Positions 1,823 through 34,004 of a DNA stretch of 34,166 bases are shown one piece after another. The position numbers were made by a program, and so were the translations under genes. Within the stretch, counting starts at the first letter, position 1. Every line of letters begins with the position of its first letter. The notes beneath the pieces were generated by a model, which saw only the letters and a program-made list of their open reading frames with translations, was not told the origin of the DNA and did no database searches. The DNA lies in the sequence record SRR9188677_231, one strand, 5' to 3'.

Positions 1823-4800
1823 ATGATGAATCCGTCTCGAATTTTTATCTTGCGCCCGGTGGCGACCTCGCTGCTGATGCTGGCCATCTTGCTGGCTGGC
1901 ATTCTGTCATACAGCCTGTTACCTAAGGCCGCTTTACCGCAAGTTGATTACCCGATTATCCAGGTGGTGACTTTGTACCCTGGCGCTAGTGCGGAAGTAA
2001 TGGCGATGAATGTCACTTCACCGCTGGAAAGGCAGTTTGGCTCTATGTCCGGCCTGGCTCACATGTCTTCTGCCAGCTCTGGCGGTGCCTCGGTGATCAC
2101 GCTGCAATTCAGCCTGAAAACCAGCCTGGATGTGGCTGTTCAATCTGTGCAGGCAGCCATGAATGCCGCCAGCAGCTTTTTACCTGCCGACCTGCCAGCG
2201 CCACCGATCTACAACAAAGTTAATCCTGCCGATGCACCGGTATTAACACTGGCGGTAACCTCCTCCACTTTGCCGTTACCAAAATTGCGTGATCTTGTGG
2301 ATACCCGTATGGCGCAGAAAATTGCGCAAGTGAATGGTGTCGGACTGGTCAGTGTCGATGGCGGTCAAAAACCGGCTATGCGCATCCAGGTGAACCAATC
2401 CGCTTTAGCCGCCTACGGCCTGGGCTTGAATGACTTGCGTACCCAGATTGATAGTGCCAACTCTAACCAGGCCAAAGGCAATATTGATGGCCCACTACTG
2501 GCTTATGAACTGGATGCCAACAGCCAGCTGCGCTCTGCAGAGGAATACCGTCAATTGATTGTTGCTAATGTCAACGACAGGCCGGTAAGGTTAAGCGATG
2601 TCGCAGACATTAAAGAAGCACAGGAAGACATGTATCTTGCTGCCTGGGCGAATAAAACCCCAGCTGTACTCGTCAATATCAAGCGCCAGCCGGGTGCCAA
2701 TGTCATTGAGGTGGTTGAACAGATACAGGCCAGATTGCCCTCATTGACTGCGGGATTACCTGCCGATGTTGAAATCAAGGAGTTAACCAACCGCACCCAT
2801 ACCATCCGTAGCGCACTGCACGATGTGCAGTTTGAGCTGATGCTGGCGGTCGGTTTGGTGGTGATGGTGATTTTTCTGTTCTTGCGCACCGCAGCCGGCA
2901 CCCTGATTCCCAGCCTGACTGTTCCGCTATCTTTGGTGGGTACCTTTGGTGTCATGTATGCCGCTGGCTTTAGTATCAACAATCTGACATTGATGGCACT
3001 CACCATCGCCACCGGTTTTGTGGTGGATGATGCGATTGTGATGATTGAAAACATCGCCCGACACATTGAAGAAGGTGAAAGCCCACTGGAGGCCGCATTA
3101 AAAGGTGCCCGCCAGATTGGTTTTACCATTATCTCACTGACATTTTCACTGATTGCGGTACTGATACCATTGCTTTTTATGGGCGACGTGATCGGGCGTC
3201 TGTTCCGGGAATTTGCCGTGACACTGGCTGTAGCCATTTTGATTTCAGCGGTGGTGTCATTAACGCTTACCCCTATGCTATGCGCGCGTTTACTCAAGGC
3301 CGCCCCACCGCAGCATGATAAGCGCCCAACATTCAGCGATAAGGTGATCGAGATTTACGGTCGTTACCTGAAGATTTCCTTAAATCATCAACCTTGGGTG
3401 CTGGCTATTGCAGGGCTATCATTCCTACTGACGGTTGCGCTGGCGATCGTGATTCCCAAAGGTTTGTTTCCGGTACAAGACACCGGTTTTATCCAGGTAA
3501 TTACCGAAACACCAGGTTCGGATGCCTTCAGGCAAGTCAGTCTGAAGCAACAGCGGGTTGTAGATGAAATCCTGCGTGACCCGGATGTAGACAGCGTGTC
3601 ATCAGTGGTGGGCATTGATGGCGTGAATACCACCCATAACAGTGGCCGCCTGTTGGTTAACCTCAAACCTTATCCCCTGAGGCAATCATCAGCCACAGCA
3701 GTGATCAGCAGATTAAAGCGTAACCTGGATGAGAGTTCACCTCTGATTCTGCATATGCAGCCGGTGCAGGATCTGACGCTTTCGGACCGTGTCAGCCGAA
3801 CCCAGTATCAATACATGCTGACCAGTACCGATCCGGAGGGGTTAGCTCAGATACTGCCGGCGTTTCTTGAAAAACTTCGCCGGTTGCCGCAGTTAACGGA
3901 CGTCGCCAGCAACCAGCATGACGATGGCTTACGTGCCGCGATTGTCGTGGACAGGGACAATGCCGGCCGTCTTGGCATCACCATGGCGGATGTTGACAAT
4001 GCTTTATACAGTGCATTCGGCCAACGCATGATTACTACTATTTTCACACAGGCAAATCAATACCGCGTGATCCTGGAAGCGCAGCCCTCCCAAAGCCCGG
4101 GGCTGGCTGCGCTGGAACAAGTCTTTGTTTCCAGCAGCAACGGTCGGCAAGTGCCACTGGCGAGTATCGCGACTGTCAGCGAAAAACCTGCTTCCCTGGT
4201 GATATACCGTGAAGACCAGCTACCTTCGATTGAAATCGGCTTTAACCTGGCCGCGAACTATGCGCTGGGTGACGCTGTGTCTGCGATTACAAGGGTTAGG
4301 CAGCAAATGCAATTTCCGGCAACAATCATTAGCCGTTTTCAGGGTGCGGCATCGGCATTTATTGCCTCACTGGATAACGAGTTATTTTTAACGCTGGCGG
4401 CGATCACTACCATGTACATCGTGCTCGGCATTTTGTACGAAAGTTATATTCATCCCCTAACCATATTGTCAACACTCCCCACTGCAGGCGTAGGTGCTTT
4501 GCTGGGCCTGATGGTGACCAATCATCCATTAAGCGTGATCGCGATCATAGGGATTATCCTGCTGATCGGTATTGTGCAGAAAAATGCCATCATGATGATT
4601 GATTTTGCGCTTGAGGCAGAGCGGGAACATGGTAAGACACCTCTGGAAGCCATCTACCAGGCCTGCCTGTTACGCTTCCGGCCTATCCTGATGACTACCC
4701 TGGCAGCGCTGTTCAGCGCCGTACCACTGGTTCTGGGCGATGGCCCCGGCTCAGAGTTGCGCGCGCCGCTGGGAATTGCGATGATAGGTGGCTTGCTCTT

Positions 4801-15541: not shown

Positions 15542-15586
15542 CAAGATGAGGCGTATTGTATCTGCAATATTATGGGAGGCATCAGC

Positions 15587-16066
15587 ATGTCATTGTCCAG
15601 CATCCAGACTAACCTGGCCGCATTGATCAACAAAGCATATAGCACTGACAATAGCGCAACGAAGTCCGCTGCATCCACACAGGCTAGCGCTACAGCGAGC
15701 ACAGCCAAAACCGCGCCTAGCGCTGAAAAAGATGCCACGACTGCTGCCGATACCGCAACAGACAACCCAGCTGGCGCCAGTGCGCAGGTGACATTAGGAC
15801 AATCAGGCAACACAACAGAAATCTATACCGCACAAGGCCTGTTACAGCAAATGCGGCAGATTCAGCTCAGCAATACCATGCTGCTGTTTGGCAGTGAAGA
15901 AGAAAATGCCGAAGACAGTACCGGCTTAATGGGCATGTTTGGCAGTGAAGGTGATACTGAAGGGGAAAGCGATTGGACCGAGTCCATTAGCCAGCAGCCG
16001 GATAAAGCCGCGATAATGGTTGAAAAGGCAAAAAATAGTTCGATTAAGACCATGCTAGGTGGTTAA
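15587..16066 (+). CDS. Hypothetical Ser/Thr/Ala-rich acidic protein, putative flagellar-regulon product
   Basis: 159-aa ORF with a strong SD (GGGAGG at 15574-15579) before the ATG at 15587; no signal peptide, TM segment or Cys; follows a sigma-28 promoter. Confidence 0.75.
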   Translation: MSLSSIQTNLAALINKAYSTDNSATKSAASTQASATASTAKTAPSAEKDATTAADTATDNPAGASAQVTLGQSGNTTEIYTAQGLLQQMRQIQLSNTMLLFGSEEENAEDSTGLMGMFGSEGDTEGESDWTESISQQPDKAAIMVEKAKNSSIKTMLGG

Positions 16067-16665: not shown

Positions 16666-17040
16666 TCATTGATATTTAGTGTATTTATCGTTACTACCTT
16701 TACATTTTTCTACCGGATATTTCTGGTCATTCAGATCGATTTTGGCATTGGTCGCAGCAATCAAATCAATTCCGCAGACTTCGGCGATGCGCATCAGATA
16801 GACAAAGGTATCCGCCAGCTCATGCCCAACTTTTTCTTTAGTGTCAGCGTCCAGCTGGCGGCTTTCCTGCTCGGTCATCCACTGGAAATGCTCTACCACT
16901 TCAGCCGCTTCTACGATCATCGCCATCGCGAGGTTTTTTGGGGAATGAAACTGTGCCCAGTCACGCGCATCCACAAATGCATTGATACGTCGACGTAAAG
17001 TCAGCAAGGAATCAGTAGTCTGGTTTTCGGGTTCGGTCAT
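16666..17040 (-). CDS. MazG-like nucleotide pyrophosphohydrolase (dCTP pyrophosphatase-like)
   Basis: Motifs RDWAQFHSPKNLAMAMIVEAAEVVEHFQW, ELAD and KYP. Confidence 0.9.
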   Translation of the reverse strand: MTEPENQTTDSLLTLRRRINAFVDARDWAQFHSPKNLAMAMIVEAAEVVEHFQWMTEQESRQLDADTKEKVGHELADTFVYLMRIAEVCGIDLIAATNAKIDLNDQKYPVEKCKGSNDKYTKYQ

Positions 17041-17076: not shown

Positions 17077-19320
17077 TTATTGCTGTGCAAGCAAGGCTTC
17101 AAATTCATCTGCAGGCAAAGGCCGACTAAACAGGTAACCTTGCATCTCATCACAATCATGCGATTTCAAGAACTCTAGTTGTGCCTGAGTTTCAACGCCC
17201 TCGGCGATGACGGTTAACCCCAGACTTTGGGACATTTTGATGATGGCAGTGACAATTGCCGCATCGTTGATATCAATTTCTATATCACGAATAAAGCTTT
17301 TATCAATTTTAATGGTATTCAGTGGCAACAGCTTTAGATACGACAGGCTTGAGTAACCAGTTCCAAAATCATCCACGGAAAGGCGAACACCCATATCTTT
17401 AAGCTTATTCAAATCATTAATTACAGTCACCTCACTTTGAATTGCAACGCTTTCAGTCACTTCAAGTTCCAGATTATAGGGTTGCAGGCCAGTTTGTAAT
17501 AACACTTTGACGACCTCCTGCGTAAAATGCGTTTGGTGTAACTCCACTACTGAAACATTAATCGCAATCGGAATCTCGGGCAAGCCGGTATCTTGCCATT
17601 TTTTATTCTGCGTACAAGCTTCACGCAATACCCAGTGGCCAATGCCCTTGATCAAGCCGGACTCCTCAGCAATCTTGATAAAGCGATCTGGCATCATCAT
17701 GCCCCATTGCGGGTGCATCCAACGAATAAGCGCTTCTGCACCAATAATCTTGCCAGTTTTAATACTGACTTTAGGCTGATAAAACAGTAGTAGCTCATTG
17801 TTTGAAATGGCTTTTTGCAGGCTGATTTCCATCGTGAGCTGGGCCGCAACACGTTCACTCATTTCATTGGTAAAAAACTGGTAATTATTTCTGCCAGAAT
17901 TTTTGGCATGGTACATCGCAGCATCTGCATGCCTGGTTAACACATCCTCACTTTCACCATCATCAGGATAAACGGCAATACCAATACTGGCAGTAATAAA
18001 CAACTCGTGATTAGCGATGCTGACCGGATCCTTAATCAGAGTGAGTATTTTTTGGGCGATTTCGGCAGGTACTGCGTCATCATTTAACTCGGGTAATAAC
18101 ACGACAAACTCGTCCCCACCCAGGCGACTAAGTGTGTCAGAGGCTCGAATGCACATTTGAAGCTTTTTACTCAACACTTTGAGCAACTGATCGCCAACTT
18201 CATGGCCCAGGGTATCATTCACCCGTTTAAAATGATCTATGTCAAAAAACAGAATCGCAAGCTTGGATTTCCTTCTCTTTGCAGCACTGATCGCTTGCGT
18301 GATACGGTCTGTCAGCAACAATCGATTCGGTAAATCGGTCAGGTAATCATGCTCGGCAAGATAGGTCATTTTTTGTGCCATCTGGCGGGCATCACTCACG
18401 TCATGAAACACCAGCACCACGCCTAAAATGGCGCCATTCTGATCGCGAATTGGCGCAGCAGAATCTTCAATGGCGTATTCAGCGCCTGTTTTGGCAATCA
18501 GCAAGGTATGATTCGCCAGCCCGCAAACTTTGTTATGCGTCAGCACCACATCCACCGGGTTGGCTGCCAACTTGCGAGTGCTTTCATTTAAAATCCTGAA
18601 CACTTCCAGAATCGGCCGTCCCAGTGCCTCGGCTTTGCTCCAGCCCGTCATTTCTTCGGCCACCGGATTAAGATAAGTCACCTCGGACTGCATATTGGTG
18701 GTAATCACCGCATCCCCGATAGATTCCAGCGTGACAATCGCCAGTTGTCTCTGGTTAAACAGTTCGAGCTCCGTGCGCTTTCTTTGTTCTATCTCCTGAC
18801 GCAAACTCTCATTGATGTTGCTCAAATCTTCAGTGCGTTCTTTGACCAGATGTTCAAGATTCAAATTTAATTTTGCCAGCGCCTGTTCTGCCAGTAATCG
18901 TTTCTCAACTTCAGATTCCAGCCTGGCAATGGTTATTTTCAGCTGTTTTGTGCTGGTAATCGTCAAGGCAACCGGCATCAAACGCCACAGCATGATTGCG
19001 GTAATCCCTGAAGCCACTGCCGTAACGCTTTTCATGGCGGCATCTAGCCAATAGGCAGGCTCCCAAATGGTTGCAATCGCAATCAAATGCGTCGTTCCAC
19101 AGGCAAAGATGAACACTGAAAACATAACGAATACCCAGTTAAACTCGAGATCAGCGCGTTTTTTAACCAGGTAGAGCAATGCAATCGGGATCGTGTAGTA
19201 GGAAATTGCTATGACAGTGTCGGAGACAACATACATCCACAGCAGGACGGGCGTCCATAAATAGCAATGACCATGCGGCATAAAGTCGCCAGGTACCAAC
19301 CAACTCAATAAAGCATCCAT
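17077..19320 (-). CDS. Membrane-bound ETR1-type ethylene-binding domain + PAS + GGDEF + EAL (c-di-GMP cyclase/phosphodiesterase)
   Basis: Three N-terminal TM helices with SDTVIAISYYTIP and FIFACGTTHLI; coiled coil; PAS (LESIGDAVITT..YLNPVAEEMTGW); RASD I-site plus GGDEF; EAL, DDFGTGYSSL, KIDKSF and EGVE motifs. Confidence 0.9.
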   Translation of the reverse strand: MDALLSWLVPGDFMPHGHCYLWTPVLLWMYVVSDTVIAISYYTIPIALLYLVKKRADLEFNWVFVMFSVFIFACGTTHLIAIATIWEPAYWLDAAMKSVTAVASGITAIMLWRLMPVALTITSTKQLKITIARLESEVEKRLLAEQALAKLNLNLEHLVKERTEDLSNINESLRQEIEQRKRTELELFNQRQLAIVTLESIGDAVITTNMQSEVTYLNPVAEEMTGWSKAEALGRPILEVFRILNESTRKLAANPVDVVLTHNKVCGLANHTLLIAKTGAEYAIEDSAAPIRDQNGAILGVVLVFHDVSDARQMAQKMTYLAEHDYLTDLPNRLLLTDRITQAISAAKRRKSKLAILFFDIDHFKRVNDTLGHEVGDQLLKVLSKKLQMCIRASDTLSRLGGDEFVVLLPELNDDAVPAEIAQKILTLIKDPVSIANHELFITASIGIAVYPDDGESEDVLTRHADAAMYHAKNSGRNNYQFFTNEMSERVAAQLTMEISLQKAISNNELLLFYQPKVSIKTGKIIGAEALIRWMHPQWGMMMPDRFIKIAEESGLIKGIGHWVLREACTQNKKWQDTGLPEIPIAINVSVVELHQTHFTQEVVKVLLQTGLQPYNLELEVTESVAIQSEVTVINDLNKLKDMGVRLSVDDFGTGYSSLSYLKLLPLNTIKIDKSFIRDIEIDINDAAIVTAIIKMSQSLGLTVIAEGVETQAQLEFLKSHDCDEMQGYLFSRPLPADEFEALLAQQ

Positions 19321-19490
19321 ACAAAAGCCTCTTCGAAGATTCTTAATGGTGAAATGTGGTGAGTTAAAGCTGTTTTACCACAGTAAATACTGGAAATGCT
19401 ATAGCGATAATATTTACGACTATAATTTATACTAAAAAATAATACGTGGCACGGATAAAACAATGATTAACATTTCAACAAGGCATAGAC

Positions 19491-19567
19491 TTCAACGTTG
19501 CATTGCAATTTCCGGGAGCTTGCTGACGCTCACGAATACATTCAACATTGCATCGCAAGCTTGAATG
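19491..19567. repeat. 18-bp imperfect direct repeat (50-bp period); the second copy lies inside a hairpin
   Basis: TTCAACGTTGCATTGCAA (19491-19508) and TTCAACATTGCATCGCAA (19541-19558) are 16/18 identical. Hairpin CATTCAA...TTGAATG spans 19539-19567. Confidence 0.5.
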
Positions 19568-19609
19568 CGCCATCAGATGCATGGCTAACATATTGGCGGA
19601 TATAGAATA

Positions 19610-20761
19610 CTAAGAGACCTGCTTACGGTTGCTACCTGCCACCATCTTGATTTCAAATAAACGGCATTCGAGCGGGCCGTTGAACAATGGTGTTTTTTTG
19701 CTTGGGCTTAAGCGCATCAGTTTGGGCATACGTAAATCGTTGGTCAGGAAGTACGTATTCCAGCCACTGAATTGCTGTTTAAGTGTGGCAGCCATTTGTG
19801 GATATAACTCGGCCAGTGTTTCATCTTCACCGATGCGCACACCATATGGTGGATTCGCCACCAGTACGCCGCTGTCGGCGGGTGGAGTGAGTTTGGTAAA
19901 TTCGATATGGCTCAGTTGTACCGCTTCGCTCCAGCCAGCCATTTCCAGGTTTTGTTTGGTGACACGCACGGCTCTAAGATCCATATCTGAACCATAAATC
20001 TTCTGGAAGCTGACAGGTTTCACGGCTTTGGCGGCCGCATTGCGGATTTTCTTGAAAGTATCTGATTCAAAGTTTTTGAGTTTTTCAAAACCGAAATTGC
20101 GGTTCAGGCCTGGCGCAATATTCAGCGCCATCATTACCGCTTCCTGCAGGAAGGTACCGCTACCACACATCGGGTCCAGCAGTGCCTGGCCTGGTTGCCA
20201 GCCGGAAAGTTTTAAAATACCAGCCGCCAGGTTTTCACGCAGCGGCGCTTCAATGGTATTTTTACGGTTGCCGCGCTGGTATAACGGGTTGCCTGATGTA
20301 TCTACATACAGGAGAAAACGGTCACTGGTTAAATAGACATGTACACGGATATCCGGCTCACGTGTGTCAATATTGGGTCGGCTACCCACGGCCTGGCGGA
20401 ATTTATCGCAAATGGCATCCTTGACGCGCAATGTAATGAATTCCAGGCTTTTCAGCGGGCTGCGCACCGCGGTGACTTTCACCATCATGCTGTATTTCAC
20501 ATTGAACCAGTTCGGCCAATTCACTTTAAGTGCACCCTGGTAAATGTCTTCTTCCGTTGCGTACTGTCCGTTGCCGACTTGCATGAGCACACGGGTGGCC
20601 ACGCGTGAATGCAGGTTGATCTGGTAACACACGCCCAGGTCACCGCTAAAGCTGGCACCGCCATCGGTAGGTTTGATGTCATTGGCGCCGCTGAGCTTCA
20701 ATTCCTCAACAAGTAAGGTCTCTAAACCGCGCGGACAGGTTGCAAAATAATGGTTACGCAT
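19610..20761 (-). CDS. THUMP-domain class I SAM RNA methyltransferase (RlmL-like, stand-alone)
   Basis: Motifs FATCPRGLE, EAPLRENLAAG, DPMCGSGT and NPPYG. Confidence 0.88.
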   Translation of the reverse strand: MRNHYFATCPRGLETLLVEELKLSGANDIKPTDGGASFSGDLGVCYQINLHSRVATRVLMQVGNGQYATEEDIYQGALKVNWPNWFNVKYSMMVKVTAVRSPLKSLEFITLRVKDAICDKFRQAVGSRPNIDTREPDIRVHVYLTSDRFLLYVDTSGNPLYQRGNRKNTIEAPLRENLAAGILKLSGWQPGQALLDPMCGSGTFLQEAVMMALNIAPGLNRNFGFEKLKNFESDTFKKIRNAAAKAVKPVSFQKIYGSDMDLRAVRVTKQNLEMAGWSEAVQLSHIEFTKLTPPADSGVLVANPPYGVRIGEDETLAELYPQMAATLKQQFSGWNTYFLTNDLRMPKLMRLSPSKKTPLFNGPLECRLFEIKMVAGSNRKQVS

Positions 20762-25473: not shown

Positions 25474-25926
25474 ATGCTGACTGCTGAACAATTAATTACC
25501 GATGCTGGCTTGCGCCCGACCAAAGCCAGGGTTGCAGTATTGAATACCCTGTTAACATCCACCAACGCACTTAGTCACCCGGATATTCTGGCGGCTTTGC
25601 AAGGCGTGGAGATAGACCGCGTGACAGTATACAGAGTGCTTGATTGGTTGCTGGAAAATAGCTTGATTCATAAAATTTCCAGCGATGACCGCGCCTGGAA
25701 ATTCCAGCTGAATGCGCCTAAACGCAACTATCGCAGTGCAGACACAGCCCATCTAGGCCTACTAAATAACCACGGTCACGCACATTTGCACTGCCAGCAA
25801 TGCGGGACTGTATTGTGCATACACGAGCTGGCGGCGCACATTCCGCAATCATTATTTGATACTTACCGTGTATCGAATATCGAAATCAGCCTGAAAGGGC
25901 TTTGCCTGGATTGCCAGCAATCCTGA
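25474..25926 (+). CDS. zur: Fur-family transcriptional regulator, probably Zur
   Basis: Motifs GLRPTKAR, DRVTVYRVLDWL, HGHAHLHCQQCG and GLCLDC. Zur identity is inferred from the adjacent dksA2/COG0523 island and the palindromic boxes. Confidence 0.75.
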   Translation: MLTAEQLITDAGLRPTKARVAVLNTLLTSTNALSHPDILAALQGVEIDRVTVYRVLDWLLENSLIHKISSDDRAWKFQLNAPKRNYRSADTAHLGLLNNHGHAHLHCQQCGTVLCIHELAAHIPQSLFDTYRVSNIEISLKGLCLDCQQS

Positions 25927-25985
25927 GTGTTTCACGCTTCCACATTTAAACCTCAAGATACTAAACACGTTAGAGTTAATACTTA

Positions 25986-26057
25986 AATTGCAACATAGTT
26001 GCAATTAATTCCATATCAACTTAAAATGCAACAAAATTGCATTGCAACCAAGTTGCG
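25986..26057 (+). promoter_or_regulatory. Three TGCAAC-N3-GTTGCA palindromes (putative Zur boxes) overlapping a sigma-70 promoter
   Basis: AATTGCAAC-ATA-GTTGCAATT (25986-26006, perfect), AATGCAAC-AAA-ATTGCATT (26025-26043) and TGCAAC-CAA-GTTGCG (26043-26057). Promoter: -35 TTGCAA (25999-26004), 17 bp, -10 TAAAAT (26022-26027). Confidence 0.8.
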
Positions 26058-26059
26058 TA

Positions 26060-26467
26060 ATGATGTTGACTCCTGGTGAATTACTTTCCATGCCTGAAAC
26101 TGCCTATATGAATGCCGGACAACTCGCATTCTTTAAAACACTGTTGCTCACGGAACTAGAAACCTTGCAAGCCAATATGCAACTCACCAGCGTGCATTTG
26201 CACGAGCAGCAGGAAACACCGGACCCGGCCGACAGGGCCACCCAGGAAGAAACACACGGCCTGGAACTACGCGCGCGGGAACGGGAGCGCAAACATATCA
26301 AAACGATACAGTCTGCCTTGTTGCGGATAACCACCGTCCAGTATGGTTATTGCGAAGAAACCGGCGAGCCCATTGGGCTGGCACGCCTGATTGCACGGCC
26401 CACCACAAAACTATGTCTGGAAGCGCAAGAGCGCCATGAGCGCCGCGAACGGCAATTCAATCACTAG
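26060..26467 (+). CDS. dksA: Zinc-independent DksA paralog (DksA2-type)
   Basis: [10 protein letters not shown]; coiled-coil tip [11 protein letters not shown] (DxxDxA); the finger region [29 protein letters not shown] reads CxxT...CxxA instead of the four-Cys zinc finger. Start is ATG 26060 or 26063. Confidence 0.9.
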
Positions 26468-26487
26468 AAAAAACGAAGGAAAACGCC

Positions 26488-27723
26488 ATGAAAAAACTCC
26501 CTGTGACAGTACTCTCCGGCTTTCTAGGTGCTGGCAAAACCACCCTGCTCAACCATATCCTCAATAACCGCGAAGGCAAGCGGGTGGCAGTCATTGTTAA
26601 CGATATGTCGGATGTGAACATAGACGCGCAACTGGTGCGTGATGGCGGTGCTGAGTTATCACGCCAGGAAGAAAAGCTGGTAGAGATGAGTAATGGTTGC
26701 ATCTGCTGTACTTTACGTGAAGATTTGCTGGTGGAAATCACGCGCCTGGCGAAAGAAAACCGTTTTGATTACCTGCTGATTGAAACCACCGGCATTTCAG
26801 AGCCTTTACCGATTGCCGAAACGTTTACCTTTGCCGATGAAGAGGGCATTTCGCTGGCGGATGTTGCACAGCTGGATACCATGGTGACCGTGGTGGATGG
26901 TTATCACTTCCTCAAAGACTATAGTTCTCAAACATTGCTCAGTGAGCGTGGCGAATCACTGGGTGAAGAAGACCAGCGTACGGTGGTTGATTTGCTGGTT
27001 GACCAGATTGAGTTTTGCGATGTGCTACTGCTGAATAAAACTGACCTGATGACGCTGGAAGAAATAGCGCAACTGGAAGGTATTTTAAAAGCTTTGAACC
27101 CACGTGCTCACATCCTCCACAGCAGTTTTGGCAAAGTGCCGCTTAACCGCATTATGAATACCGGATTGTTTGATTTTGACCTGGCAGCCGATGCGCCTGG
27201 CTGGCTGCAGGAATTACGCGGCGAGCATGTGCCTGAGACGGAGGAATATGGCATTTCCAGCTTTGTCTACCGTTCGCGCAAGCCTTTTCATCCGCAACGG
27301 TTATGGCAATGGCTCAATACCGAGTGGCTAGGCGTGGTCAGATCCAAAGGACGTTACTGGATTGCCTCTCGCCCTGAGTTGTGCGTCATGTGGTCCCAGG
27401 CAGGCGCCGTCACGCGTACGGAACTGGCCGGCATCTGGTGGGCAGCGACCGCGAGCGAGCATTGGCCGGACGATACGGAAAGCCTGCAAGAGATACACGC
27501 ACGCATGCAAGCACCGTACGGCGACCGTCAGCAAGAACTGGTGATTATTGGCATGCATATGCAGAAAGAAGCCCTGATCGCCGGTTTTGATGCCTGCCTG
27601 CTAACCGAGCATGAGATTGCTTTGGGTATGGATGCCTGGCGTAGACTCCCCGATCCATTCCCGCGGTGGTCAATGGGTGAGCATGATGAAATAGAGCAAC
27701 AAGTGACAGAGGAAATGGTGTAA
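26488..27723 (+). CDS. COG0523 G3E GTPase zinc metallochaperone (ZigA/YciC/CobW family)
   Basis: Motifs [15 protein letters not shown] (CxCC), ETTG and NKTD; CobW_C domain ([16 protein letters not shown]); SD AAGGA. Confidence 0.93.
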
Positions 27724-27725
27724 TC

Positions 27726-28400
27726 ATGCGCCACACCACGCAAATTCCGCCTCAGACCACTTCGTTGCCCGGCATGAATATAGATTTTGACGCGATGGAA
27801 TGTCTGTCTATTTTTGAACCCTCACAACAAGTAGGTATTGTCACAAGGCCTAACAACCCAAGAATATCTGCTTATTTGCAGCAATTCAGCAACCAGCTCA
27901 GCGCTGGCAGCAGGCTGACGACAAGACAAAAAGAAACAATGCCTGCCCTGCTTGACCGACAACTACGTCTACCTGAAGGCATCGGCAAACAAGATTTGCT
28001 CGCTGATATCTGCCTGCTGGTTAAGCTTTATGCTGACCTGATGGATTGTCCTTCGGTAGGCATCAGGCTGGAAGTGCTGAAGCATGCCATGTGCCCTAAG
28101 TTTCATATTGACCGCACCGGCATCCGCCTGCTGTGCACTTATCTCGGCCCAGGTACTGAATGGCTGGACGAAGCATTTTGCAATAGGAATGCATTTGCCA
28201 GCACACACCCGACCGATGAAATATTCAACCAATCGCTAGTCCTGCATCCTCGAGGCATACGTCAGGCGCCTGAGCAAGCATTGGTATTGCTAAAAGGCAG
28301 TTTGTGGCAAGGTAATCAACATAGCGGCGCTATTCATCGCTCACCCCAGATAGCAGAAACTACGACACGTGTGGTGCTGGCATTAGATGCGATCTGGTGA
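27726..28400 (+). CDS. DUF1826-family protein
   Basis: Motifs MCPKFHID, RLLCTYLGPGTEW and LLKG..W....GAIHRSP; usual neighbour of COG0523. Confidence 0.82.
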   Translation: MRHTTQIPPQTTSLPGMNIDFDAMECLSIFEPSQQVGIVTRPNNPRISAYLQQFSNQLSAGSRLTTRQKETMPALLDRQLRLPEGIGKQDLLADICLLVKLYADLMDCPSVGIRLEVLKHAMCPKFHIDRTGIRLLCTYLGPGTEWLDEAFCNRNAFASTHPTDEIFNQSLVLHPRGIRQAPEQALVLLKGSLWQGNQHSGAIHRSPQIAETTTRVVLALDAIW

Positions 28401-28421
28401 TCAATCGAATTAATAAATGCT

Positions 28422-28457
28422 CATAAAAGTGACACGGAATCCCATAAAAGTATCACG
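28422..28457 (+). promoter_or_regulatory. 15-bp direct repeat with 21-bp period upstream of the TonB receptor (possible TF site)
   Basis: CATAAAAGTGACACG (28422-28436) and CATAAAAGTATCACG (28443-28457) are 13/15 identical. Confidence 0.45.
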
Positions 28458-28580
28458 ACGTCTACCTCATGTTTTTTTGTGAATGACAGTCAGGTTTTTT
28501 AGTCAGAAAGCTAAATTGACGGACTTATAATGATGAGATTGTCCGGATAAATCTAAAATAAATCCTCAGGGAAGAGAAAC

Positions 28581-30644
28581 ATGCCGCATCAAAAAACAAT
28601 TGTCAGTCTGCTGGCAATGATATTACTACCTGCCGTATCGGTATCAGCGGAGGAAATAGAAGTACCAGAAAAAATTAAAGACAGCAGCCGACAAAAAAGC
28701 AAAGCCAAAGAGCCGGTTAACATTGAACTGGATAGCGTGATCGTTCTCGGTAAAAAAGAGCAGGTCTCTGCCACTGATAAAAGCCTCGCCGGTTCTGTTG
28801 ATGTCATCACCCGCGATGAACTTGAATATGAACATGTAACCGATACGCTGGAATTATTCAGTAAAACGCCAGGTGTGGTTCTCTCACGCTACAGCCAGGG
28901 CATAGTGAATACCGAAATCTCTATCCGCGGCTTTAGCGGTGACGGCGAAACACCGAATGCCAAATTGCTGGTTGATGGTATCCCTTCCAATTTATTTTCC
29001 GGATTGAGCGAGCTGGATTACCTGTTCCCGACCAATATCCAGAATATCCAGGTATTTAAAGGGACTAGTGATGCCACCACTGGTTTGTTCGCGACTGCCG
29101 GTAACTATAAGGTCGAAACGCGCAAGGACACCGGCAAGCAATTGCAATTTGGCTATGGCAGTTTTCAAACGCGCGAAATGCAAGGCTATTATGGCGAAAA
29201 ACAAGGCGATTTCACACAAAACTATGCGATGGGCTACCGTAAAGGCAACGGATTCCGGGACCATACCGAGAATGAGAAAATTGCCTTATCCGGCCGCTGG
29301 CAATTGGATTTTGACCAATCCACCCTTGCCTTAAGTGCCAAATACGGCAAATACAACTCACCGGAAGCGCCTGGCTATATGCCAAAAGCGCAGGCTCGTT
29401 CCAACAGAACCGGCGTAGCGCCGAATGCGCTGAACGATAGTGGTGAGAAAGAATTCAAGCATTTAAGTCTGCATTACGACTATTTCTTTGATAATGATGT
29501 GGATGTTAGCCTCAAGGGTTACTGGCAGAATTTTGACCGTGAGCGGGTTGTGCGTTTTGTTAACTCAGTTCAAGAAAATAGATTTGATGATCAAACTTCC
29601 ACTGGTCTCATTGCCAAACTCAACTGGAAAATCAATCCACAGTGGGCATTTGAAACAGGCTACGATATTGAACATCAGGCTGTAAACGAATTTCGTTACC
29701 GTCCTAGCAATGGACAAATCCGCCGCGATGCCACCTATGATTTTAATGCACAGGGTGTCTACGCAAAATTTGAGAATACACCTTTAGACTGGTTGCGCTG
29801 GAATATTGCCTATCGAGTGGATCGTCTTAGCAGCGATCCCAAAAACACATTTATTTCAAACGATATTACACTCAGAACAAACATGCTGGATGATCAAACC
29901 ATCGTTCAGCCTAAATTCAATATCTTTGCAAACTTGAATGAGCAACAAACTTTGTTTGTCAATGCTGGGCGCAGTTTTCAAACACCGACAGGCACTGATT
30001 TAAATTTGTTTGACAGATCAGGTACCAGGGTGCCCGTCGATGTTGCTATCAATGATGGCTGGGAACTAGGCCTGAAAAGCGCCTGGAGTAACGATCTGAA
30101 CACTCGCCTCTCATACTGGCAGCAAAAAGCTGAAAATGAGTTTATCAATATCGATGGCACCCGCCGATTACTGGGTGCAACGCGCAGGCAAGGCGTGGAT
30201 GCCAGTGTGGATTATAAGTTAAATGACTACTTAAGCTTCTGGGGTAATCTCTCTAAAGTGTATGCCAAAATTGATGAGCCGAATGCGCTTAATCCAAGCT
30301 TCCAAGGCAACACGATACGCAGTATCCCGGACCACACGGCTTCTTTAGGCCTGCAAATTACCCCAAACGCTGACTGGATTGCGCGGCTTCACATTGACCG
30401 CCAGGGCGCTTATTACGTCAACGAAAGCAATCAGGGCGGCAAATATGGCGCTTACACGCTTACTAACGCGAATGTGGATTACAAAACTAACTGGGGGCGA
30501 GTCAGTTTGCTGGCTAACAATATTTTCGATAAATATTATGAGTATGTGTATGACTTTTCATCCACAGGTGCGACTAACCAGCTGAATTTCGCCCCGGGTG
30601 CCGGCCGTAACTTTATGCTCACTGCAACTGTGGATTTCAAATGA
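28581..30644 (+). CDS. TonB-dependent outer-membrane receptor
   Basis: Signal peptide; TonB-box-like LDSVIVLG; plug motifs TPGV..SIRGF..LLVDGIP and IQVFKG; C-terminal NNIFDKYY...PGAGRNFMLTATVDFK. Confidence 0.93.
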   Translation: MPHQKTIVSLLAMILLPAVSVSAEEIEVPEKIKDSSRQKSKAKEPVNIELDSVIVLGKKEQVSATDKSLAGSVDVITRDELEYEHVTDTLELFSKTPGVVLSRYSQGIVNTEISIRGFSGDGETPNAKLLVDGIPSNLFSGLSELDYLFPTNIQNIQVFKGTSDATTGLFATAGNYKVETRKDTGKQLQFGYGSFQTREMQGYYGEKQGDFTQNYAMGYRKGNGFRDHTENEKIALSGRWQLDFDQSTLALSAKYGKYNSPEAPGYMPKAQARSNRTGVAPNALNDSGEKEFKHLSLHYDYFFDNDVDVSLKGYWQNFDRERVVRFVNSVQENRFDDQTSTGLIAKLNWKINPQWAFETGYDIEHQAVNEFRYRPSNGQIRRDATYDFNAQGVYAKFENTPLDWLRWNIAYRVDRLSSDPKNTFISNDITLRTNMLDDQTIVQPKFNIFANLNEQQTLFVNAGRSFQTPTGTDLNLFDRSGTRVPVDVAINDGWELGLKSAWSNDLNTRLSYWQQKAENEFINIDGTRRLLGATRRQGVDASVDYKLNDYLSFWGNLSKVYAKIDEPNALNPSFQGNTIRSIPDHTASLGLQITPNADWIARLHIDRQGAYYVNESNQGGKYGAYTLTNANVDYKTNWGRVSLLANNIFDKYYEYVYDFSSTGATNQLNFAPGAGRNFMLTATVDFK

Positions 30645-31351
30645 CTGCATTACTATCGATCCAGCAATTAAGCCTGCGTTTTGCCGGGCGTCAAATTTTA
30701 AACCAGCTAGACCTCAACCTGCGTGCTGGTGAAGTCGTCTCAGTGTTAGGCAGCAATGGCGCAGGTAAATCTACCCTTCTGAAAAGCATTCTTGGGTTAC
30801 AAGATGCGGCCGAGCAAACAGGTTCAATCCTGATCGCCGGTATTGCTATCGCACAAGCAAGAAATCAGGCTTTGTCGCATCTCGCATATGTGCCCGAACA
30901 ACCGGCGGTATACGGCCATCTCTCCGCGATTGAAAATATCCGTTACTTTTTAAGCCTGGGTGCCATCAGCCAGAGCATGGATATTGCAACCTGCCTAACC
31001 ATGGCTGGCTTGCCTGAGCAATCCTGGCATCGCCCTTGTAGCGAATACTCCAAAGGCATGAAACAAAAGGTGATGCTGGCATTCGCGCTGGCAAAACAGG
31101 CAAAACTCTTGTTGCTGGATGAACCCAATTCCGGACTGGACCCCCAGGCCACCGAAGAGCTGAACCAACTCATTGTGCAATGCAAAGAGCGTGGTATGGG
31201 CGTGCTGGTGGTGACGCATGACGTACTGTCTGCCATCGCCTTTTCTGATCGTTTGCTGATGCTGACCAACGGCCAGTTACAACCGGTAGCTTTGAACGAA
31301 TCAGCAATCACGCTGGATAGCCTCAAAAGACTATATCAGGGACAGGTATGA
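30641..31351 (+). CDS. ABC transporter ATP-binding protein
   Basis: Walker A GSNGAGKST, signature YSKGMKQ, Walker B LLLLDEP, H-loop VTHD; ATGA overlap with the receptor gene. Confidence 0.93.
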   Translation: MTALLSIQQLSLRFAGRQILNQLDLNLRAGEVVSVLGSNGAGKSTLLKSILGLQDAAEQTGSILIAGIAIAQARNQALSHLAYVPEQPAVYGHLSAIENIRYFLSLGAISQSMDIATCLTMAGLPEQSWHRPCSEYSKGMKQKVMLAFALAKQAKLLLLDEPNSGLDPQATEELNQLIVQCKERGMGVLVVTHDVLSAIAFSDRLLMLTNGQLQPVALNESAITLDSLKRLYQGQV

Positions 31352-32754
31352 ACTCATTGATCTGGAAAATCGCCATCAATGAATGGCGGCGCTTATGGCA
31401 TGCACGCGTTCCTGCTTTGTTATTGCTGGTATTAGTTGCTCTATGGGCGATTGCCGCACTTGCCGCCCATCATCACTGGCAAGACCATGCAAACACCGTC
31501 GCAGAAGTCACGGCACGTAGCCAGCATGACTGGCAATCGCAACCTGACCGCCATCCGCATCGCGTTTCACATTACGGTGATTTTGTCGCCAAACCAGTTC
31601 ACCCGCTCAGCGTGATCGAGCCGGGCATACTCGATCAATCCGGGCACCTGGTCTACCTTGAAGCGCACCGGTTAAATAGCGCAAATTTCAATCCGGCCAC
31701 CGAGGCCACCAGTCTTGGCCGCTTCCCATTGATTACCCCGGCCATGATTGTGCAATGGTGGATGCCGCTGTTTTTAATCATGATTGCCTATGCCACGGTC
31801 ACCGCCGATAAAATCAGTGGCATTCTCGCTTTTATGCGCGGCAACGGCACGCCTGGCTGGGCAATCGCGAGCGGAAAATGGCTGGCGTTGTTTTTGCCAC
31901 TGTTTTTCTTATTGTGTTTGCAAACCCTGTTGATCCTGGCCTGGAGCTGGCAGAGTGAGCAGGCTTTGCTCAGGTTGTCTATCCTAGCGCTCTCGCAAGC
32001 GCTTTATATCGCCGGATGGTGCCTGCTGGTCGTGGCCGTGTCGTGGTTCAGCAAGCAATTACATGGTGCGTTGCTGACCTTGCTGCTGTGCTGGGTATGT
32101 ATCTGCATTATTTTCCCGCGAGGATTAGCGAATCTGGCCCAGATTTCATACCCGACCCAACCAAGAACAGAAGCTGAATACCATGCGGAAACCAAACTGC
32201 AGGCCATAGGTGACAGCCATAATCCCAACGATCCGCATTTTGCCGCTTTTAAAGAAAGCGTACTGAAAAAATACCATGTCAGCAGTGTAGAAGATCTGCC
32301 AGTGAACTATCACGGCATATTGATGCAGGAAGGCGAACGTTTAACCACTGCTGTTTATCGTGAACAGCAAGTGCTTCACGATGCGCAACTGGCTAAACAG
32401 AATGAAAGTATCCGGCACTGGTTGTGGTTAACACCTGCATTGGCGTTGCAATATATACAGATGGCCAGCGCCGGCAATGACCTGTCGCATCACCAAGCAT
32501 TTATCAGTCAAGCAGAGGATCGCCGCTACAAATTAATTCAATACCTTAACCAGGTCCACACGTTCAAAGTCATTCAGCATGACGATAAGAACACCCGTGT
32601 ATCCGCAGATTTCTGGAAGAAAGCACCCCGTCCTCCGGTTCATTTGTCACCTATGGCCGTCAGCCGTAGCAGCATTCTGGCAGGCTTTCTCGTGTTGCTG
32701 GGTTGGATATTCATCCCGGGATGTTTGCTTTTTAAAGTGTCGCACCGCTTATGA
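31348..32754 (+). CDS. ABC-2-type permease with large His-rich periplasmic domains (DUF3526-like), subunit 1
   Basis: N-terminal WKIAINEWRRL followed by a TM; motifs RHPHRVSHYG, LEAHR and GDSHNPNDPHF; multiple TMs; ATGA overlap. Confidence 0.82.
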   Translation: MNSLIWKIAINEWRRLWHARVPALLLLVLVALWAIAALAAHHHWQDHANTVAEVTARSQHDWQSQPDRHPHRVSHYGDFVAKPVHPLSVIEPGILDQSGHLVYLEAHRLNSANFNPATEATSLGRFPLITPAMIVQWWMPLFLIMIAYATVTADKISGILAFMRGNGTPGWAIASGKWLALFLPLFFLLCLQTLLILAWSWQSEQALLRLSILALSQALYIAGWCLLVVAVSWFSKQLHGALLTLLLCWVCICIIFPRGLANLAQISYPTQPRTEAEYHAETKLQAIGDSHNPNDPHFAAFKESVLKKYHVSSVEDLPVNYHGILMQEGERLTTAVYREQQVLHDAQLAKQNESIRHWLWLTPALALQYIQMASAGNDLSHHQAFISQAEDRRYKLIQYLNQVHTFKVIQHDDKNTRVSADFWKKAPRPPVHLSPMAVSRSSILAGFLVLLGWIFIPGCLLFKVSHRL

Positions 32755-34004
32755 AACATGAACTGACTTTATTGCTCAAGCAACGCAGCATCATTATATT
32801 GCTGCTGCTAAGCCTGTTTTTGACCGGCTTTAGCCTGTTTAACGGCTGGCAAAATATCAACCACATTAACGCACAGATCAACCAGGCAAAACAGGAAGAA
32901 ATTTTGCGCAAGCAGGATTTTCTCGAACACCATAGCCATCATGGAACGCTGGACGCTGGCGAACTGGGCTACTACCTGTTCCATAATGTGTACCATAGCC
33001 CTGGCGAGTGGAGTTTTATTGCACTGGGTAACCGGTTGGTCGTTCCCTATATACAGCGCATACGTTTATTGGGCTTACAAAGCCAGCTTTACGATGGTGA
33101 ATCCCATCATCCTGAATATGTGATGCTGGGTACGTTTGATTACGCTTTCCTTCTAGTATTTTTTGCACCTTTGCTATGTATCGCCCTGATGCACGACTTA
33201 AAAGCCAGCGAGCAGCAAGCTCAAAGACTACTGTTTTTACGAAGTTTGATGACCGAGCCAAAGTTGTTTTGGGGTAACCGCGTATTATCCCGCTGGCTGC
33301 TGGTCACGCTCACATTCGTGTTGCCGCTATTGTTACTTGCTGCCACGCAAACACTTTCATTTTCGCCGTTGATACGCATACTGGCGATCACTGCCTTATA
33401 TACTTTTTTCTGGTCTGTATTATGCGCGGCCATCAGCCTGCGTAAACGCGCGCTCAACGCCAATTTCAACGCCATGCTGTTGGCTAGCATCTGGGTCATG
33501 CTCTGCGTAGTATTGCCCAATCTTTCCCAGCTGTGGCTGCATCACCATTACCCATTACAGGACGGCAGCCAGATTGCCTTGCAGCACCGGCAATGGGTAC
33601 ATGGTGCGTGGGACTTGCCCAAAGAAGACACGCTGGCGCCGTTTTATGCCCTGTATCCGCAGTGGAAAGACTCACCGCCAGTGACAGAGCGTTTTCACTG
33701 GAAATGGTATTACGCTTTCCAACATATGGCAGATGTAAAACTAGAATCACAAGTTTCCGCACGTGAACAGGCACTCAATCAACGTGACCAAGCCACTGGC
33801 TTGCTAGCCAGATTTTTGCCGACAGTATGGGTACAACGCAACCTGGAAGACATTGCACAGAGCGATGTGCCTGACCTGTTAGCACAACGGCAACGCATTA
33901 CCACGTTCCATACACATTTAAGGCACTATCTATACCCTTACCTGTTTGAGGAGAAGCCTTTTACGACTGACGCTTACATGCATCTGCCAGTGTTTGAAGA
34001 TTAG
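32751..34004 (+). CDS. ABC-2-type permease (DUF3526-like), subunit 2
   Basis: MKHELTLLL followed by a TM; motifs EHHSHHG, GTFDYAFLLVFFAPL, HGAWDLPK and FHWKWYYAFQ; ATGA overlap. Confidence 0.82.
   Translation: MKHELTLLLKQRSIIILLLLSLFLTGFSLFNGWQNINHINAQINQAKQEEILRKQDFLEHHSHHGTLDAGELGYYLFHNVYHSPGEWSFIALGNRLVVPYIQRIRLLGLQSQLYDGESHHPEYVMLGTFDYAFLLVFFAPLLCIALMHDLKASEQQAQRLLFLRSLMTEPKLFWGNRVLSRWLLVTLTFVLPLLLLAATQTLSFSPLIRILAITALYTFFWSVLCAAISLRKRALNANFNAMLLASIWVMLCVVLPNLSQLWLHHHYPLQDGSQIALQHRQWVHGAWDLPKEDTLAPFYALYPQWKDSPPVTERFHWKWYYAFQHMADVKLESQVSAREQALNQRDQATGLLARFLPTVWVQRNLEDIAQSDVPDLLAQRQRITTFHTHLRHYLYPYLFEEKPFTTDAYMHLPVFED

Follow-up and report, generated by a model that had tools for sequence, protein, structure and literature searches.

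Within a 34,166-nucleotide stretch of DNA from sequence record SRR9188677_231 (hereafter the window), we analysed a gene on the minus strand (17077..19320, ATG start, 747 amino acids) whose product appears to join a copper-dependent ethylene-sensing domain of the plant ETR1 type straight to the enzymes of cyclic di-GMP (c-di-GMP) turnover, that is, known parts in an uncharacterised wiring. From the N-terminus, the predicted protein comprises an ETR1_N sensor, a long helix and PAS, GGDEF and EAL domains. We consider it probable (about 60%) that it acts as a one-component Cu(I)-ethylene sensor that tunes c-di-GMP, where we infer the binding of copper and ethylene, the coupling, its direction and the phenotype. 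The original prediction for this DNA had the same open reading frame (ORF) and left the strand, which is minus, unstated.

The sensor (residues 26–120, 18961..19245, minus strand) is a true member of the ETR1_N family by every sequence test. It matched the Pfam profile PF25487 over positions 2–96 of 97 with an E-value of 2.3e-36 and 124.4 bits against a cut-off of 27, and three hydropathy peaks (1.5–2.1) fit three N-terminal membrane helices. The same Pfam scan found no other membrane-sensor family in the protein at E 0.001, so the profile check that the original prediction had proposed placed the N-terminus in ETR1_N and in no unrelated family. A language-model search with residues 1–130 also ranked ETR1_N clusters top (0.95). 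As reference receptor we used AzoEtr1, the 525-residue protein of Azospirillum brasilense Sp7 (L062), one of 20 carriers from a tblastn search of plasmid records; it has D35, C75, H79 and K98, matching the published AzoEtr1 numbering, and its first 130 residues were reported to bind ethylene saturably (PMC11819568). The sensor aligned to AzoEtr1 without gaps over 115 residues, 53 of them identical (score 314; the highest of 1000 shuffles scored 63), and the identities included D34, Y41, I44, P45, I71, C74 and H78 as well as K97. The profile match and this alignment agree with the ETR1-type domain that had been proposed, ETR1 itself being represented by its published residue numbers, and all seven putative binding residues lie where they had been predicted. 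Y41 corresponds to ETR1 Y32, which we take to be an ethylene-binding position. The spacing of ETR1 D25, C65 and H69 (PMC11819568, PMC10266040) and of I35, P36 and I62 (PMC6586836) is maintained in the sensor at an offset of +9. Overlooked in the earlier work was K97, the counterpart of ETR1 K91 (PMC11819568, PMC10266040), which is the proposed relay partner of D25 (PMC10266040). Its offset is +6, so that helix 3 is displaced by three residues relative to ETR1, which has three more residues ahead of that helix.

In the AlphaFold model of the full-length protein, helices at residues 24–54, 61–86 and 90–118 are followed by a continuous 72-residue helix (residues 124–195, 18736..18951, minus strand), likely a dimeric signalling coiled coil, and then by the PAS, GGDEF and EAL folds; the sensor modelled alone gave the same three helices with a predicted local distance difference test (pLDDT) score of 79.1. 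Three helices and a cytoplasmic output would place the N-terminus in the periplasm. When two copies of residues 1–135 were modelled together, the homodimer scored 0.54 against 0.00 for the best of three controls, with at least 89% of contacts agreeing between runs and a partner pLDDT of at least 75; 21 of 30 solved homo-pairs attained the mark used for such models, and none of 23 single chains did. In the modelled interface helix 1 packs against the partner's helix 3, and K97 contacts D34 across subunits. This supports, but does not show, that the sensor forms a homodimer. Searches of the PDB copy for solved relatives of the sensor domain returned none by sequence at E 10, none by Foldseek at E 0.001 and a single chance-level match by profile, which makes it less likely that the dimer passed from model memory.

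Ahead of helix 1 lies the motif PHGHC (residues 15–19, 19264..19278, minus strand). The HGHC motif had been described as an extra element; it is present at residues 16–19, yet H16 and C19 are each kept in 27 of the 29 domains recovered from an evenly drawn sample of the phylum, in which the second histidine (H18) is variable (8 of 29), and the AzoEtr1 counterpart is PHGVC. We therefore rejected HGHC as a unique feature: HGxC is general among bacterial family members. That PHGxC is invariant in our alignment A3 and among the named loci came from the selection pattern and is not evidence on this point. The single N-terminal cysteine of cyanobacterial receptors has been proposed to stand in for the plant disulfide pair (PMC6682694). 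The motif is predicted to face the periplasm, from the cytoplasmic output and the charges of loop 1 (three K/R, two D/E), and the modelled dimer interface takes in residues 12–16 and 18–21 around it. Among 62 domains found with the Pfam profile, HGxC and the core site were both kept in 55, both missing in five and singly missing in two; this set leaves out 80 domains retrieved by motif, and because three of the five double losses belong to one genus the coupling is a hint rather than a test. Three Methylophilaceae proteins (L058:4118-6769, L060:4399-7038 and L061:4553-7195) have kept GGDEF and EAL, lost HGxC and replaced the copper-ligand cysteine by tyrosine, and may be natural sensor-dead or re-purposed variants.

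The tendency toward joint loss of HGxC and the core site bears on a different reading, which we regard as rather unlikely, in which the Cu(I) site is intact and the signal is another copper-binding small molecule (a volatile sulfur compound, carbon monoxide or another alkene) or the copper or redox state, partly read through HGxC. It would suit the aquatic strains among the carriers. A mouse olfactory receptor senses organosulfur odorants with a Cu(I) Cys/His site and a similar Asp-Lys arrangement (PMC10266040), and uncultivated Methylophilaceae were reported to degrade dimethylsulphide (PMC4611497). However, both bacterial domains that have been tested directly, SynEtr1 and AzoEtr1, bind ethylene (PMC6682694, PMC11819568), and the sensor equals AzoEtr1 at every key position. 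For sulfur volatiles, the methanethiol-oxidase-like family PF05694 exceeded its cut-off in only six of the 151 genomes of the family, three of which carry the domain; as 28 of the 31 carriers are without it, a link through PF05694 is unsupported.

The cytoplasmic part consists of a PAS domain (residues 198–312, 18385..18729), a GGDEF domain (322–479, 17884..18357) and an EAL domain (500–734, 17119..17823), all on the minus strand and identified with Pfam, the latter two also by their motifs. No kinase family was matched by Pfam in the protein, whose output is GGDEF plus EAL, unlike canonical ethylene receptors. With all motifs present (RxxD at 392–395, GGDEF at 401–405, EAL at 529–531, DDFGTG at 650–655 and EGVE at 707–710), the predicted non-kinase output of an apparently intact cyclase and phosphodiesterase is upheld at the level of domains and motifs. 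The RxxD I-site, five residues upstream of GGDEF, the GGDEF motif and the EAL set E529, N588, E620, D650, D651, K671, E707 and Q727 are invariant in 50 homologues, as are the sensor site residues. We take the metal and substrate residues of GGDEF and the EAL set to have their usual catalytic roles. Both enzymes were present in 114 of the 120 homologues listed; in these 114, GGDEF, RxxD and the sensor Cys and His were kept throughout and the EAL motif in 113. The ratio of nonsynonymous to synonymous substitution rates (dN/dS) was 0.02–0.10 in all five regions of the gene against three named relatives (L155-L157), with 0.02–0.07 in the sensor, and 0–0.18 against the nearest relative. The gene is under strong purifying selection, the sensor being as constrained as the enzymes.

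This constraint is also relevant to the suggestion that the membrane domain is mainly an anchor and dimeriser for a c-di-GMP enzyme that is always active or governed by its PAS domain, most likely a phosphodiesterase, and to which gas matters little. The PAS-GGDEF-EAL part in the cytoplasm is ordinary, its closest matches being generic hybrids, the sensor has been exchanged among outputs, and the three family members with tyrosine for cysteine retain their enzymes. Against this, the site residues are invariant across the 50 orthologues, the dN/dS of the sensor is as low as that of the enzymes, and an anchor has no need for buried Asp, Cys, His and Lys; we find this explanation quite improbable. 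Among the 25 NCBIfam families shown, none of the 24 equivalog cut-offs was attained (best DibA, 542.8 versus 980).

In the ethylene-sensing mechanism that we favour, two copies would pair through their three-helix domains, and D34 would position C74 and H78, which would hold the Cu(I) that binds ethylene; the gas may come from plants or from soil or sediment microbes. The D34-K97 contact and helix 3 would then move the 72-residue helix and, onward through the PAS domain, GGDEF pairing or EAL activity would shift, tilting c-di-GMP turnover toward synthesis or toward breakdown. Arguing by analogy, we give little better than even odds to the view that ethylene lowers c-di-GMP and so favours motile life. 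ETR1, SynEtr1 and AzoEtr1 were described as active when free and switched off by ethylene, an inverse agonist, and in A. brasilense ethylene reduced c-di-GMP and biofilm by a route left unexplained (PMC11819568); from these two observations a fall in c-di-GMP is guessed here, and weakly held. In Synechocystis ethylene increases biofilm (PMC11819568). Flagellin was present in the three genomes tested.

Comparisons were made with genome G001 and its relatives, and the counts treat kin that are not independent, with named and handle sets that overlap. The domain was present in 31 of the 151 genomes searched in the family, in 10 of 41 in the genus and in 29 of 401 in the phylum. In Methylophilaceae (31 of 32 matches, one on a short contig being omitted), 29 of the 31 domains were joined to GGDEF and two to kinases; 27 of the 29 carry an in-frame EAL as well, and one of the 29 is interrupted by a stop. 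By comparison, the 29 domains recovered from the phylum sample comprised 26 kinases, one GGDEF protein and two with neither; here 30 of 32 matches were fetched, and the nearest genome, already counted in the family, and a 26-residue fragment were left out. These counts indicate that c-di-GMP wiring is uncommon in general and the norm within Methylophilaceae, which answers the family survey suggested earlier and fits the earlier statement that outputs elsewhere are usually of the kinase type. The ETR1_N family as a whole has 10,407 cluster representatives at 50% identity; the best 150 comprised 108 kinases, seven GGDEF-EAL proteins, one with GGDEF alone and 34 without a BLAST-reference assignment. 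Named homologues were from Methylophilus and other Methylophilaceae, and beyond the family the fusion was found in Noviherbaspirillum autotrophicum, Paucimonas, Gallionellaceae and a deltaproteobacterial bin. The sensor tree, weakly resolved and built from 108 of 143 rows (identical copies and rows without an assigned output left out), showed nine changes of the output label, at least two of these being forced. A single origin for all c-di-GMP fusions is unsupported by this poorly resolved tree.

Several observations weigh against an ethylene-to-c-di-GMP sensor. Sequence by itself cannot separate ethylene from other ligands of Cu(I). The full-length model (mean pLDDT 81.7) had a low predicted template modelling score of 0.44, so that the packing of its domains is unsure. 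In GGDEF-EAL hybrids one enzyme alone is often active. The genomes of relatives G001, G122 and G131, each about 3 Mb, have 41–43 GGDEF matches apiece; in such a very dense c-di-GMP network, one protein may do little to the pool as a whole. The domain is missing from 31 of the 41 Methylophilus genomes searched. The copy in the nearest named relative, Methylophilus sp. Leaf416 (L154:4501-6744), has an in-frame TAA at codon 342, and full-length copies occur in the lake strains M. medardicus MMS-M-51 and strain 13.

The last two points concern the host. It is a Methylophilus, judging by the names attached to its homologues, and the methylotroph of the original prediction thus stands. Its plant association is weakened: Leaf416 is an isolate from an Arabidopsis leaf, and strains MMS-M-51 and 13 came from lakes, the one from water and the other from sediment (PMC8399692); the copy that stops is the leaf isolate's, and both lake strains have intact ones. 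Contigs of one soil metagenome covered 30 of 30 bins and those of one aquatic metagenome 27 of 30. M. glucosoxydans, Methylovorus mays, M. menthalis and Novimethylophilus come from plants. The host lineage may be plant-dwelling; the gene is not plant-specific.

The gene has rlmL on one side and a MazG-like gene on the other. Eight of the best 30 loci in the genus were occupied and 22 empty, with rlmL and mazG 48–266 bases apart in the latter. In an rlmL tree the window and G001 were nested among empty-site genomes (nearest 90% identical), and the window gene was 89.8% identical to that of G122, yet their rlmL genes only 74.9%. Compared with Leaf416, identity was mostly 96–100% in the flanks, 87–96% inside the gene and 74–88% upstream of it, a mosaic (window positions 17500–18900 and 19321–19609) that is a sign of allele exchange. 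The simplest reading of these sequences would be ancestral presence and repeated loss, then regain or allele exchange through recombination, and the gene is an accessory one that has apparently moved between species. The stop codon in Leaf416 separates the sensor-PAS part from the GGDEF-EAL part, so this copy may be a natural null or split allele. The empty sites and this stop codon would also suit a nearly neutral accessory gene without phenotype that drifts in and out and is decaying in this lineage. We judge that very improbable given the strong purifying selection, the retention of Gln342 in all 37 of the 747-residue homologues compared, and the apparent regain across species at the same site, which suggests that the gene is sometimes useful.

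A broader proposal, possible but tentative, is that Methylophilaceae rewired the receptor family-wide, turning a kinase into a switch that acts directly on c-di-GMP and passes among Methylophilus species at one chromosomal site. These methanol feeders would use ethylene from plants or oxygen-poor sediment as a cue to attach or leave, and the periplasmic HGxC would be an undescribed site of copper loading or of a second ligand in bacterial receptors.

Among known systems, AzoEtr1 is similar in the PAS domain after the sensor, the gap-free alignment, the seven positions, the lysine and PHGxC, whereas its output runs through a histidine kinase and a distinct response regulator, and ours consists of c-di-GMP enzymes within one chain. 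SynEtr1 (Slr1212) of Synechocystis, of which residues 1–130 bind ethylene, and GeiEtr1/2 of Geitlerinema have the same domain family and one N-terminal cysteine (PMC6682694). Compared by description only, they differ in their GAF and kinase domains, and the diguanylate cyclase of GeiEtr2 is a separate, adjoining gene (PMC6682694). ETR1 resembles the sensor in the family match and the +9 spacing, and a Cu(I) homodimer with an Asp-Lys relay has been modelled for it (PMC10266040); it differs by having two N-terminal cysteines rather than one, GAF, kinase and receiver domains, and signalling through CTR1 (PMC6682694, PMC7700396). E. coli DosP, P. aeruginosa MucR and MorA-type proteins likewise join a sensor to tandem GGDEF-EAL (the enzyme part matches their PDB chains at E 1e-68 to 1e-126), but their sensors are heme-PAS or MHYT rather than ETR1_N. 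The protein seems to work in a logic like that of a gas-sensing GGDEF-EAL hybrid, not of a canonical kinase-type receptor.

Earlier surveys reportedly list cyclase or phosphodiesterase outputs. Our literature search found no study of an ETR1-domain GGDEF/EAL protein, and figures or supplements of older surveys may already show the architecture; the fusion was not mentioned in one supplement of PMC10266040 or, by term search, in PMC6508509. Bacterial ethylene-binding domains with many outputs have been described (review, PMC7700396). New here are the agreement of the sensor with a proven receptor down to the relay lysine, the family-wide switch to c-di-GMP output, and a single site at which the gene was apparently gained, lost and exchanged. 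If the proposal is true, this would be the first one-component ethylene-to-second-messenger enzyme, and would provide the direct route from ethylene to c-di-GMP left open by the Azospirillum study. The coupling of ethylene to output is still argued from models, because the PDB copy searched held no structure of the domain and the kinase is not the main output of the plant receptor (PMC11819568). In a natural fusion with easily assayed enzymes, the Asp-Lys relay and the inverse-agonist model could be tested even in E. coli, and the protein could be a ready ethylene biosensor. Natural carriers, empty-site relatives and the nonsense allele form a ready-made comparison set. Should binding fail, the seven residues would be insufficient for it.

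Upstream of the gene lies an AT-rich block (19406..19475, minus strand), seen by eye, that is a candidate promoter or regulator site and is common to the window and four named Methylophilus carriers (four of ten upstream regions inspected). A sigma-70 promoter scan gave five sites against 6.4 expected, none of them upstream of the sensor gene. The rlmL-like methyltransferase gene (19610..20761) flanks the gene upstream, and the MazG-like gene (16666..17040) starts 36 bases past its stop codon, both on the minus strand; they are given as context. A functional operon with these neighbours was rejected, as the rlmL and mazG flanks occur in close kin only (31 family loci) and are joined directly when the gene is absent. 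Elsewhere in the window, 15572–16066 holds a 164-residue Ala/Thr/Ser-rich ORF with no Pfam match, 98% identical in the nearest genome and 35–40% in two others. At 25474–34004, consecutive genes for a Fur-family regulator, a DksA-like protein, CobW/COG0523, DUF1826, a TonB receptor, an ABC ATPase and two DUF3526 proteins resemble what we take to be a zinc-starvation cluster.

Other ETR1_N proteins were also noted. Short ETR1_N-histidine kinases of Pseudomonas gingeri, citri, uvaldensis, zanjanensis and others (L206, L223, L224, L228-L230 and L233, match near 4501) keep all seven site residues, and these bacteria would be easy hosts for ethylene-sensing tests. Six Gallionella/Sulfuricella proteins of about 330 residues (L180, L184, L187, L189, L199 and L214) had no output found; L180, the sole one scanned, adds a PAS domain, and five of the six have Glu for the conserved Asp. 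ETR1_N without any other Pfam family (E 1e-6) occurred in L142:484-1686, L207:3476-4165, L231:4324-5190 and L186:4399-5271, possibly with new output domains or as stand-alone sensors. In the third-ranked cluster of the language-model search, an ETR1_N cluster of about 146 residues, Uroviricota was the most frequent phylum for the few members that have a record, which points to possible phage-borne copies.

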